Shown here one piece after another: positions 19,267-62,166 of a DNA stretch of 64,000 bases. Under the pieces are notes generated by a model. It did not search any database. It was not told the DNA's origin and saw only the letters and a program-made list of their open reading frames with translations. Positions within the stretch are counted from its first letter, which is position 1, and each line of letters starts with the position of its first letter. Source of the DNA: Pseudomonadota bacterium (GTDB lineage Bacteria; Bdellovibrionota_B; Oligoflexia; Oligoflexales; CAIYRB01); the NCBI GenBank assembly GCA_026390435.1, contig JAPLFY010000105.1, positions 606 to 64,605 on the forward strand, written 5' to 3'. The position numbers were made by a program, and so were the translations under genes.

Positions 19267-19294
19267 TCAAGTTTAATCGAAGAGTAGCCGATCC
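19267..19294 (+). promoter_or_regulatory. sigma-28-type promoter (weaker match)
   Basis: TCAAGTTT-N12-GCCGATCC upstream of 19342. Confidence 0.55.
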
Positions 19295-19341
19295 CTAGAT
19301 CATGCGGAGAGCTGCTTAGCCCGAAAGAAGGTCAAGAATCT

Positions 19342-20310
19342 GTGGTGGTTATAAACAACGGCGGTGGAATTAAGCTTTTAGCAACCGGAAGGGATCACCT
19401 ACCTAGTTGGCTGCCTCAGGCTATTTGTGGTCTGCTCTTGTCTTGCGGTGCTCCGCAAAAATCGGCCGATAAGACGCAGTCTTTATTCGACTCAACACCC
19501 AGCCTACAGACCATAGAGACATCACTCTGTAGTAGTATTGCAACTCGTGCTGAAGCGCCTACTCTTAAGGGCTTGGATTTCGATCTGCAGAACTGTCAGA
19601 GAGCTGGTCTAGGTGCGGTAGACTTCGCAAAAATTAAATCTTTTGTTTTCGTTAATGTCGATGGTACCGCTACAAGCTCCGCCATTACATCCGAGCTGCT
19701 AGCAGATCGAACTGAGGCTAAGCAACCAAACACTGATAGCACTCTATCATCGGCTGTGGATGAGGACGGCATACCATACACTAACCGGCAGATGCGGGCG
19801 CAAGTTTGGCTCAATCGCCCATTTTTGAATATGGCCGGTGGTCTGACTGATTTTATCAAAGTAAAGCAGGCTAGTGATGGTGGCGCGGTTGCATTTTCTG
19901 ACCAGTCGAAGTCGGCTTTTGCCGAGGTAGCCAAAACCGCTTTGGTTTTGACCAAAGCGCCGACTCTGGATTTAGATGGCTTTAATTTTTCCATGGATAT
20001 GCAGCTAAATGTATCGGGTTTGGTGACCGTTAGTCAGGCGCTCAAACTAGATGGAAAGATGGTTGATAATAACTTCCCGCTGGTTATTCGTTCGGTCAAG
20101 AATGCTCCGTATTCGAATTCTTTGATCCGCGATATGAAAATCGTAATGCTGATTATTCCCTACGCTAATGACGTCTACGTCGATATATTCACGGATCTTC
20201 GCGTATACAATATTGGGATGCAGGTAGTGGTGGACCAGCAGTTAAATGCTTTTTTAGGCGTGACTCTAAAGAGCATGCTGGATGCACTAATAGCGACGGG
20301 GGCTAAGTAA
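19342..20310 (+). CDS. Hypothetical lipoprotein
   Basis: Lipobox LLSC; long ORF in an operon with 20313; start uncertain. Confidence 0.65.
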   Translation: MVVINNGGGIKLLATGRDHLPSWLPQAICGLLLSCGAPQKSADKTQSLFDSTPSLQTIETSLCSSIATRAEAPTLKGLDFDLQNCQRAGLGAVDFAKIKSFVFVNVDGTATSSAITSELLADRTEAKQPNTDSTLSSAVDEDGIPYTNRQMRAQVWLNRPFLNMAGGLTDFIKVKQASDGGAVAFSDQSKSAFAEVAKTALVLTKAPTLDLDGFNFSMDMQLNVSGLVTVSQALKLDGKMVDNNFPLVIRSVKNAPYSNSLIRDMKIVMLIIPYANDVYVDIFTDLRVYNIGMQVVVDQQLNAFLGVTLKSMLDALIATGAK

Positions 20311-20312
20311 GT

Positions 20313-21176
20313 ATGTCCCGTAAAATCACTACGCCGTTATTTCTGATGATTTTTATGACCTATGCCGTGGCCTGTGGCAGCGGATCTCAGGGCACCTCAG
20401 GTGCAGAGCAGAAGCGTGAGGAGGCAACTGAGGCTATTAAATTCACGAGTATTGACTACGATCCGTTGACTGCGCCGGCAAAAGTCGCGGCGAAGGTAAA
20501 CTATGCCATTTCCATTATTGCTAAGTCGGGCAATGAAGTGTGCCGAGGAACGACACAAATCAATATTATGTCGAATCTGGAGCTCAAGTTCCCCTCCGGG
20601 ACTGTCAAATGCTTGACGCTGACTATCGACTTATCCAAAATCCTTGGTAATAGTTTTTTATCGGCAAATCCAGGCCTGGGGAATTTTACTAGTGATGGAA
20701 AAGTGCTTTATATAAAAGAGATCGGCAAAGCCACGTTTGATCCACCGCGGCCTTTTTTTCTTGGGCCCTTAGTTCAGAATCCAGCAGACTACAAGGACTT
20801 CAAATTAACTGTGCCGGAAACGGTCACTGTGAACGACCCAGAGGCTAACGTTTCCCTTTCGGGGACCGGGCAGTTTGATGTCGAAGTGCTCAGTGTGGGC
20901 GAGAAATACTCTAACCAACTATCACCTGCAAATAAGTTCGATCATGTGATGCGCTGGGCAATTTCCTCCTCCGGTTTTGATGGAGTGCCGGCTAAATATG
21001 GACTGCTTTATAAAAAAATGGAGTGGTACTGGAACACACAGCCATTGATGATTCCTAAAATTGTTATTTCAGGCGACTTAGCTGCCTTTATTGGAAGTGG
21101 CGGTTCTGGGATTAGCCGTCTTGTGGGTGATGTGACGATTAGTCTTTCAGTCAAAGATTTTGAATATGGCACGTGA
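20313..21176 (+). CDS. Hypothetical lipoprotein
   Basis: Lipobox AVAC; beta-rich sequence. Confidence 0.7.
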   Translation: MSRKITTPLFLMIFMTYAVACGSGSQGTSGAEQKREEATEAIKFTSIDYDPLTAPAKVAAKVNYAISIIAKSGNEVCRGTTQINIMSNLELKFPSGTVKCLTLTIDLSKILGNSFLSANPGLGNFTSDGKVLYIKEIGKATFDPPRPFFLGPLVQNPADYKDFKLTVPETVTVNDPEANVSLSGTGQFDVEVLSVGEKYSNQLSPANKFDHVMRWAISSSGFDGVPAKYGLLYKKMEWYWNTQPLMIPKIVISGDLAAFIGSGGSGISRLVGDVTISLSVKDFEYGT

Positions 21177-21184
21177 TAAGTTTA

Positions 21185-60373: not shown

Positions 60374-60497
60374 AGGAACTGTCAGAAAAGGATAAAAAGT
60401 TTGCTTTGGGCATTGTGGTGCGGGTGGAAAGTATTTGGCGCGATAGAGAGTTGCAATCTTTCGTACCTAACACAATATCTTTTTTAAGAGTACCACC

Positions 60498-62024
60498 ATG
60501 GCAAAAAATAGGACGTTTGGGACCTGTCGGCGATGTATTTTAATGGCCGGACTTGGCGGGCTCGTTATGAGCTGGCTTTCCGCCTGTGACCAGCAGGCTG
60601 GTTTCGGGAATCAGAGTTCCCTCGCTTCTCAACAAAATATTAAGTCCAGCTCAACGTCGTCTGGTACAAGCAGAGAAGAGCAATTGATTAGAGAGCGCAA
60701 ATTAGCGGGGGATTCCCCTATTGCCATCGCGACTTCGCTGAAAACACAGTATCAGCTCGATGCTCGGACATTAGCCCTCTTAATGAAGGCACAAGGCTTT
60801 GAGTGTGGGGACGTAGCTGAAGTGCTGCACGTAGTTTATTCGATGCCAGCTGAGGCCACAGCTTCGATGCTGCGCAGCGTTGAATACGATACCGTGAGCG
60901 TTGCTAGTGCTTTAAAGTCCAAGCTTGCAATCAAAATTGACGAGTCTAGCCTGATCCTCAGCAAAATAGGTTGTGGCACAGCTGAAATTGCGGAAACTTT
61001 AATAAAAGTTTTTGCGGCCGATGCAACGACCGCCGTGGCTGTACTTAATAAGCTAGGTACCACTGTAGCTAACCTCAGTGTGGTCCTTACGTCGACTTAT
61101 GCCCTGACTTTGCAAGAAGCTGGTGTGGTCTTAAAGTCCAGTGGGTTTGGGGCTCAAGATATTTGTCGCGCCTTCTTCGAAAGACACAGTATCAGCGAAG
61201 ATGCGGCGGCAACGCTGCTAAGCAGTATTGGATTCGGAATTGCCGAGGTCGGTTTGGCTTTGGAAGTAATTTTTTCGACGAAACTCGAGATTGAAGCGAA
61301 ACACCTCCTGACAGCGGGTTACAAGATAGCTGAATTGGCAAAGTACCTGCATGAAAAGCATCAGCTAAGTGTCGAGATAACTGCATCTGTCCTACATAAA
61401 ATCGGTTGCACGGGTCCGGAAATCGCTACCGTGTTGAAGAATGTGTTCCAGATCAAGGCGGAATTAGCTGCCTCCATTTTTCATTCCTTGGCTTACTCAG
61501 CAATTCAGATTGGCTCGCTGCTTAAAGATGTGTTCTTACTTAATGCTGACCTCGCTGCTCCAATACTGCACGCCATCGGACGGACTAGTCTTGAGATTGC
61601 ACTGGTTCTGAAGGACGTTTTCGTGCTGAAAGCTGAGATAGCAGCGGGAGTTTTGCTGCACGTCGGTTGTGCTGTCCAGGAAATCGGGATGGCTCTAAAG
61701 CAGATATTTGGTCTCCAAGCTCAAATAGCGCTCGGGATTCTGAGGAGTTTGGGCTGCACAGCAATCCAACTCGGCGGCATCTTAAAAGATGTTTACCTGG
61801 TGAAGGTTGAGTTGGCCGTTCCGATTCTAAGAGGGATAGGGTGTGCTACGAGCGAGATTGGTCAGGTACTCAAAGTGGTGTTTGGTCTAACGGCAATACA
61901 GGCTGCAGGAATTTTGAAAATCGCCGGGTATGCAGCCTTTGACATCATCTCAATTCTGCGCGACGTCTTCCTAGTTGGTGCAGATATCATTGTCGGAATC
62001 TTGGCCGGTGTGGGTTTGCATTAA
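60498..62024 (+). CDS. Lipoprotein with 15 tandem 29-aa helical repeats
   Basis: Lipobox LSAC; residues 71-505 parse into 15 ungapped G-x4-(E/Q)I-x3-LK-x-VF... units. Confidence 0.8.
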   Translation: MAKNRTFGTCRRCILMAGLGGLVMSWLSACDQQAGFGNQSSLASQQNIKSSSTSSGTSREEQLIRERKLAGDSPIAIATSLKTQYQLDARTLALLMKAQGFECGDVAEVLHVVYSMPAEATASMLRSVEYDTVSVASALKSKLAIKIDESSLILSKIGCGTAEIAETLIKVFAADATTAVAVLNKLGTTVANLSVVLTSTYALTLQEAGVVLKSSGFGAQDICRAFFERHSISEDAAATLLSSIGFGIAEVGLALEVIFSTKLEIEAKHLLTAGYKIAELAKYLHEKHQLSVEITASVLHKIGCTGPEIATVLKNVFQIKAELAASIFHSLAYSAIQIGSLLKDVFLLNADLAAPILHAIGRTSLEIALVLKDVFVLKAEIAAGVLLHVGCAVQEIGMALKQIFGLQAQIALGILRSLGCTAIQLGGILKDVYLVKVELAVPILRGIGCATSEIGQVLKVVFGLTAIQAAGILKIAGYAAFDIISILRDVFLVGADIIVGILAGVGLH

Positions 62025-62071
62025 TCGAAGTACGCAGTTAACTGCCGGCGTGACTCTTTCCTCCCTCTGAC

Positions 62072-62118
62072 AAAAACCCATTCGGTCGCTGTAATAGGCT
62101 GACTAGATGGGTTTTTTT
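62072..62118 (+). terminator. Rho-independent terminator
   Basis: AAAAACCCAT...ATGGGTTTTTTT stem with T-run. Confidence 0.7.
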
Positions 62119-62138
62119 GTGCGCAGTTGCCAATTCGC

Positions 62139-62166
62139 TAAAGTTTGTGTCTCCTTTTGCCGATAA
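62139..62166 (+). promoter_or_regulatory. sigma-28-type promoter
   Basis: TAAAGTTT-N12-GCCGATAA (both boxes match consensus). Confidence 0.9.

Follow-up and report, generated by a model that had tools for sequence, protein, structure and literature searches.

Predicted sigma-28 (FliA)-class promoters before mostly non-flagellar lipoprotein and surface protein genes in an uncultured Oligoflexales lake bacterium

Sigma-28-type sites in the 64-kb window

The window analysed here is a 64-kb stretch (positions 606-64605 of contig C131) of genome G000, the 4.28 Mb assembly of an uncultured lake bacterium of the Oligoflexales, which consists of 153 contigs and is 95% complete. An original prediction made from the sequence of the window placed 14 promoters of the type read by the flagellar sigma factor sigma-28 (FliA) in front of twelve lipoprotein genes, a beta-barrel gene and a PP2C gene pair. 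All 14 sites were found again, each within 1 nt of its predicted position. Thirteen of them are very probably sigma-28-class promoters that belong to a genome-wide, mostly non-flagellar FliA set.

The sites were scored with a matrix of two 10-nt blocks built from this genome. Eleven of the 14 were strong (at least 20 bits; range 20.4-31.0) and two (33304- and 36806-) were moderate, both with the -10 box GCCGAAG. The site before the PP2C/SpoIIE pair (54415+) scored at the level of chance, since 10-bit hits number 1254 in the real genome and 818 in simulated sequence, so that 13 of the 14 predicted promoters stand and this one is not supported. No unlisted site in the window reached 16 bits, the best being 28568- (15.4 bits, within katG) followed by 22863+ (14.4 bits). 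The 14 sites divide equally into 11-nt and 12-nt spacer classes (seven each). The exact consensus TAAAGTTT-N11/12-CCGATAA occurs once in the window (26448+) and was absent from 100 shuffles, and both words are over-represented, with nine occurrences of TAAAGTTT (2.25 expected) and 15 of CCGATAA (6.5 expected). No other 64-kb stretch of the genome is as dense: of the 176 sites that reach 20 bits, 11 fall in the window and seven in the next stretch by density.

Canonical lipoboxes were present in 11 genes downstream of the 14 sites. The Kelch gene (62244) has an atypical TINC lipobox, with standard lipoboxes in its orthologues. The product of the gene after 36806-, an outer membrane protein (OMP) beta-barrel by a weak family match, carries a signal peptide. 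None of the 59 open reading frames scanned in the window matched a flagellar family. An NCBIfam search of 19 regulon proteins of the window left 14 with no family and the rest with sub-threshold matches only, and an ESM Atlas search with two of the lipoproteins returned only unnamed 'hypothetical protein' clusters.

Assembled metatranscriptomes gave some information on the same region. Of the words sampled from positions 54000-63900, 6-17% were present in each of seven lake metatranscriptome runs, and contigs of four lake-water runs (listed as four studies), when compared with the window, were 95-99% identical, so related strains seem to be present in several lake samples. Contigs covered the Kelch gene (62189-62722, 62229-63544 and others; region 62189-63599) and the gene at 53081-54280 (53179-54228). 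None of the listed pieces crosses a promoter, and starts are not visible in contigs. These contigs give no strands or levels, uncovered stretches are uninformative and DNA carry-over is possible; at most, they are consistent with the promoters.

Some further features of the window were recorded. The block of 33304- ends only 8 nt from the ATG (33294) of its gene, with no Shine-Dalgarno sequence, and use of this promoter would give a leaderless or almost leaderless mRNA. In the 58957- unit, the second gene (57264-58313, minus strand) matched the model of the gliding-motility lipoprotein CglB at 19 bits against a cut-off of 200, which is probably meaningless. A tRNA-Cys (GCA) at 30003-30078 (minus strand) was the sole Rfam/ARAGORN match in the window. 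Two divergent DUF4143 genes lie at 2545-3870 (minus strand), which also matches AAA_14, and at 4245-4985 (plus strand), which has no ATPase domain and is perhaps a remnant.

The motif and its targets across the genome

Genome-wide, 185 sites scored at least 19 bits. Their consensus has a -35 box C-TAAAG-TTTT and a -10 box T-G-CCGAT-A-A (cTAAAGTTTt and tGCCGATAa). The boxes are TAAAGTTT-like and GCCGATAA-like, respectively, so both are of the sigma-28 type that had been proposed, and sequence information is limited to them, with none in the flanks. The enterobacterial FliA consensus is TAAAGTTT-N11-GCCGATAA, with a fixed 11-nt spacer. Here, TAAAG-N15-CCGAT and TAAAG-N16-CCGAT, equivalent to spacers of 11 and 12 nt between the boxes, were counted 43 and 73 times, compared to 7-16 times at 12 other spacings tried (background about 11). 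Among the 185 sites, 122 have the 12-nt and 62 the 11-nt spacer. The 12-nt spacer is the preferred class rather than the tolerated exception that had been suggested from the window.

The number of sites was far above that of every control. The 185 sites of at least 19 bits compare with 9.7 in three fourth-order Markov genomes, and the 176 of at least 20 bits with 5.0. When the same matrix was run over the real genome at seven wrong spacings, 9-19 sites reached 19 bits, compared to 184 at the true spacing; at 13 bits the figures were 188-267 and 558. A strict pattern matched 67 times and its reversed form three times. Two paralogous promoter families, one of seven and one of two members, account for nine of the 185 sites and leave about 177 independent ones. 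On these predictions the regulon comprises about 170 sites when the cut-off is strict and perhaps about 330, counted above the controls, when it is loose, in line with the large regulon first proposed. An unconstrained refinement of the matrix, which drifted from 810 to 1671 matches, was dropped and a false-discovery-controlled refinement was used instead. The seven paralogues, several of them 1100-1950 aa long with no Pfam family, share a near-identical promoter region and 5' leader, with a -35 box CT(A/C)AAGTTTT and a variant -10 box TGACGAA.

Position relative to genes was examined with our own hexamer-based gene caller (3653 genes covering 87.6% of the genome), which is crude and tends to shorten N-termini. 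Of the 185 sites, 170 (92%) were intergenic, 4 partially so and 11 coding. A start codon on the same strand followed within 300 nt for 154 of the 185, at a median distance of 57 nt, and among the 161 sites flanked by called genes on both sides, 157 (98%) are oriented towards a gene, compared to a null of 59%. The motif is thus concentrated in intergenic, correctly oriented positions.

At the 19-bit cut-off the sites precede 160 first genes, and counting the genes that follow closely in the same direction raises the total to 214. A lipobox regular expression, applied to every candidate start of target and non-target sets alike, identified lipoprotein candidates in 54 of the 160 targets (34%) compared to 288 of 3493 other genes (8%; odds ratio 5.7, P = 1e-18), a strong bias towards lipoproteins across the genome. 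Outside the window, 103 of 149 first genes (69%; 53/75 and 50/74) had no Pfam family (E <= 1e-4), compared to 21 of 75 neighbouring genes (28%; Fisher P = 7e-9) drawn at random from the 234 non-target genes that were called in the sequence regions retrieved with the targets. Long proteins (1000 aa or more) were also more frequent (14/160 targets, 53/3493 others), and the G+C content of target genes was slightly lower (0.507) than that of other genes (0.516). Recognisable targets included a CheA-like kinase, a methyl-accepting chemotaxis protein (MCP; 20.3-bit site), FliG, a PilA-type pilin, OmpA-family proteins, cytochromes c and peptidases (trypsin-like, M10 and ATLF-like). Only 3 of the 149 first genes outside the window were clear flagellar or chemotaxis genes. 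A link between FliA and Tad pili is known in Bdellovibrio and like organisms (BALOs); no match to the Flp pilin family PF04964 was found in this 95% complete genome. Six small toxin-antitoxin-like genes (HigB, Phd/YefM, BrnT, DUF4258, RHH, MazE) also have sites of at least 19 bits.

Table 1. Positions of the sigma-28-type sites in the window and of gene groups elsewhere in the genome (C, contig; L, locus of G000)
Feature	Location	Strand	Score (bits)	Downstream genes or remark
Predicted sigma-28-type promoter, 12-nt spacer class (19267+)	19266..19295	+	23.2	Lipoprotein gene 19342-20310 (lipobox LLSC), then gene 20313-21176
Predicted sigma-28-type promoter, 11-nt spacer class	26447..26475	+	29.9	Lipoprotein gene 26522-27442
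Moderate sigma-28-type site, -10 box GCCGAAGA	33303..33331	-	18.3	DUF3443 lipoprotein gene 31933-33294
Moderate sigma-28-type site	36805..36833	-	16.9	OMP beta-barrel gene 36135-36785 (weak OMP_b-brl match)
Predicted sigma-28-type promoter	36902..36931	+	30.4	Lipoprotein gene 36981-38042, no known family
Predicted sigma-28-type promoter	42178..42206	-	25.7	Trypsin-like lipoprotein gene 41069-42109 (Trypsin family)
Predicted sigma-28-type promoter	42299..42328	+	30.3	Lipoprotein gene 42407-43441, no known family
Predicted sigma-28-type promoter	49277..49306	+	27.0	Lipoprotein gene 49360-50085, then 50137-51525
Predicted sigma-28-type promoter	54297..54326	-	23.9	Lipoprotein gene 53081-54280
Weak site, good -10 and poor -35 box	54414..54442	+	10.7	PP2C/SpoIIE pair 54446-57255
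Predicted sigma-28-type promoter	58956..58985	-	31.0	Lipoprotein gene 58371-58892, then 57264-58313
Predicted sigma-28-type promoter	59118..59146	+	20.9	Lipoprotein gene 59172-60269
Predicted sigma-28-type promoter	60346..60374	+	20.4	Lipoprotein gene 60498-62024, start codon 123 nt away
Predicted sigma-28-type promoter	62138..62167	+	29.6	Kelch beta-propeller (lipo)protein gene 62244-63515
Seven-paralogue promoter family	L101:5704-10107, L159:1-3378, L103:1-5838, L149:1-2490, L129:1-1236, L108:1-4731, L153:1-4722			
Toxin-antitoxin-like targets	L118, L125:1-312, L128, L139, L147:1-228, L161:1-297		at least 19	
Flagellin-family genes and flgM	C101:17698-18543, C31:25560-27448, C54:10773-11699, C31:8544-9425, C72:25135-26085, C9:40553-43981			Weak or no sigma-28 matches

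Conservation, the candidate sigma factor and the late flagellar genes

Relatives found through TypA at 80-97% identity were metagenome-assembled genomes labelled Oligoflexus, Oligoflexales, Oligoflexaceae, Bdellovibrionota or proteobacterium. Strict-pattern matches were counted in 131 genomes, all listed as of the same class or nearer. Compared to the 67 matches in this genome, seven other genomes of its genus have 24-103, and the sister genera have 74 (g4), 21 (g2) and 16 and 18 (g3). Most other families have 30 or fewer, and a family of 33 mostly complete genomes has 2-26, no more than 10 in 27 of them. With the reversed pattern as control, the 131 genomes gave 0-27 matches, mostly under 10. 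Five named Bdellovibrionales-like metagenome-assembled genomes had 6-11 matches compared to 2-8 for the control.

The promoters of three window genes were followed in their orthologues, for which 4 of 14, 7 of 9 and 6 of 14 returned loci were analysed, with partial and paralogue-level matches excluded. All eight orthologues from the same genus (44-92% identical) keep both boxes at 22.7-33.5 bits with diverged spacers. The promoter of gene 36981-38042 is kept in two genomes (G032, 32.0 bits; G027, 33.5 bits), that of gene 42407-43441 in three (G032, G027 and G028, 22.7-32.1 bits, spacers diverged), and that of the Kelch gene also in three (G032, G027 and G031, 26.9-28.0 bits). In genus g3, nothing reached 8 bits in the 400 nt upstream of two Kelch orthologues, both lipoproteins, and the orthologue of gene 36981-38042 had a site of 11.4 bits only; a second g3 orthologue of this gene, at a contig edge, was dropped. 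A Kelch homologue in g4 had a 20.0-bit site. Because the sites are kept in the genus and missing from the orthologues in g3, regulon membership is lineage-specific, and these comparisons point to a genus-level, recent recruitment of these genes to FliA.

The genome encodes a single gene that passes the FliA/WhiG model TIGR02479 (285.1 bits, cut-off 189.6). The same gene scored 276.6 bits on NF005413 (cut-off 201) and its product aligns full-length to solved FliA chains, e.g., 6pmi_F (210 bits). This fliA lies in a cluster (C14:240159-243833) in which it follows flhF and a MinD/FlhG-like gene and precedes cheY, and the best site in its upstream region has 14.0 bits only. The other sigma factor matches, an 809-aa RpoD-like frame and RpoH, were both weaker. 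A flgM gene is also present (PF04316; 62 bits, cut-off 25; C9:43631-43798). A FliA-like sigma factor thus accompanies the motif. From the identity of the motif and the Bdellovibrio precedent, the single FliA of this genome most likely reads these sites.

RNA polymerase loaded with FliA would recognize a cTAAAGTTTt -35 box and a tGCCGATAa -10 box 11 or, more often, 12 nt apart, placed 20-120 nt before mostly non-flagellar genes. The genes driven in this way would encode lipoproteins, secreted proteins, proteases, giant proteins with no family and a few chemotaxis and pilus components. The anti-sigma factor FlgM and flagellar assembly normally control when FliA is active, and we infer from this gating that the envelope and surface protein set may be made together with the motile state. 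Such a programme would resemble the FliA-driven attack phase of Bdellovibrio bacteriovorus.

Several observations weigh against this interpretation. No site before the eight flagellin-family genes reaches 19 bits; for three of them the score is 13.6-14.2 bits, and 8.9% of all genes reach 13.5 bits. In the 4 kb upstream of the MotA/ExbB-family genes no site reaches 13 bits (0/6 genes), and flgM has no motif site. A regular-expression search for a sigma-54-like box before the flagellins was also negative. The weak or absent motifs of the late flagellar genes are the main evidence against reading the set simply as a flagellar regulon with extra members. The matrix was trained on the same genome with seeds requiring TAAAG and CCGAT, the same promoter region, copied in paralogues, contributes seven non-independent sites to the 185, and the target statistics use the crude gene calls and a lipobox defined by regular expression. 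The RNA data, being assembled metatranscriptome contigs, cannot show transcription starts, and stage-specific expression and a hunting lifestyle are only inferred.

The absence of a strong motif before the flagellin, motA and flgM genes, together with the three clear flagellar or chemotaxis genes among 149 first genes, would also fit a real promoter class that is read by another sigma factor, or by FliA with a further co-factor, with the late flagellar genes under a different signal. We consider this improbable: both boxes are of the sigma-28 type, only one FliA/WhiG-family sigma passes its curated cut-off while the others are an RpoD-like frame and RpoH, the MCP, CheA-like kinase and FliG genes carry the motif, and the same motif is FliA-dependent in Bdellovibrio (PMC5430801). 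It is rather less probable still that the sites bind the FliA holoenzyme pervasively and largely unproductively with no coherent programme. That situation has a precedent in Escherichia coli, where 30 of 52 FliA sites from chromatin immunoprecipitation were intragenic and regulation was seen at 14 of the 52 only (PMC4183435), but in the present genome the sites are mostly intergenic (92%) and face a gene (98%), they are kept in orthologues while their spacers diverge, and the types of target are strongly biased. Chance matches or dispersed-repeat copies, which the AT-richer composition of intergenic DNA and the two paralogous promoter families might suggest, can be practically dismissed, being already contradicted by the wrong-spacing (9-19 vs 184) and reversed-pattern (3 vs 67) controls, the lack of information in the flanks and the presence of only nine of 185 sites in true repeat families.

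The reading that we prefer is the genome-wide FliA set, in which FliA appears to direct a few hundred lipoprotein and surface protein genes, most of them of unknown function, in an uncultured relative of Bdellovibrio from fresh water. A bolder version is tentative and, on balance, doubtful. It holds that in one Oligoflexales lake genus FliA was recently re-purposed as the master switch of a fast-evolving surface proteome of lipoproteins and giant orphans with about 200-330 promoters, that late flagellar genes largely left the strong-consensus set, and that this expansion was independent of the one in Bdellovibrio and characterises a distinct type of cell, motile and devoted to hunting or dispersal.

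Comparison with known FliA regulons

A literature search on FliA in Oligoflexia (where all reports concerned BALOs) or Halobacteriovorax returned no description of a FliA regulon in this lineage. Experimental documentation of FliA as a global regulator comes so far only from Bdellovibrio, and a paper on that genus calls such a role unknown in any other bacterium (PMC5430801). The predicted regulon offers a handle, from sequence alone, on which orphan lipoproteins and giant proteins of this genus are made together, and the differences between sister genera provide a natural system for asking how genes join an alternative sigma factor. It reveals no new mechanism. A predatory Oligoflexales bacterium of algae has been reported, but no connection with the present genus is apparent.

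The closest parallel is B. bacteriovorus, in which 140 attack-phase promoters were mapped and 92 of them contain TTAAG-N16-CCGATA (Karunker et al., 2013; PMC3627812). Bdellovibrio promoters showed FliA-dependent activity in a heterologous reporter and deletion of fliA was unsuccessful (Avidan et al., 2017; PMC5430801), and such promoters were used in a 2025 toolbox paper (PMC12622784). The present genome shares with B. bacteriovorus HD100 the same two boxes, more than 100 promoters and a single fliA gene (PMC3627812; PMC5430801), and the 12-nt spacer matches TTAAG-N16-CCGATA if TTAAG sits at the position of TAAAG (PMC3627812). As in Bdellovibrio, the more than 100 predicted promoters are mostly non-flagellar and include those of surface proteins and proteases. 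The differences are that the organism here is an uncultured lake bacterium whose nearest named relatives carry the labels Oligoflexus, Oligoflexales or Bdellovibrionota; that its flagellin genes have a weak motif or none, whereas Bdellovibrio flagellin promoters respond to FliA (PMC5430801); and that sister genera differ in the extent of the expansion. The present analysis puts figures on the enrichment of lipoproteins, and no such statement was found in the portions of PMC3627812 and PMC5430801 that were consulted. A higher G+C content was reported for attack-phase genes (PMC3627812), whereas that of the targets here is slightly lower. We count this set, as predicted from sequence, as one more global FliA regulon of the Bdellovibrio type (PMC3627812), with a preferred 12-nt spacer, a quantified enrichment of lipoproteins and orphans and a genus-level gain as refinements.

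In E. coli, 52 FliA sites, 30 of them intragenic, are centred on flagellar and chemotaxis genes (Fitzgerald et al., 2014; PMC4183435), and both octamers, TAAAGTTT and GCCGATAA, occur in that paper. The box type is the same here and both FliA and FlgM are present, but the approximately 170-330 predicted sites are 92% intergenic and almost all non-flagellar, and the preferred spacer of 12 nt is 1 nt longer than that of 11. Single non-flagellar virulence genes are also under FliA control in pathogens, e.g., that of a Campylobacter cytotoxic protein (summarised in PMC5430801). In both cases sigma-28 acts, or is predicted to act, outside the flagellar and chemotaxis genes; in the pathogens this involves a handful of genes with no lipoprotein bias, whereas in the lake bacterium it would involve 5-9% of all genes.

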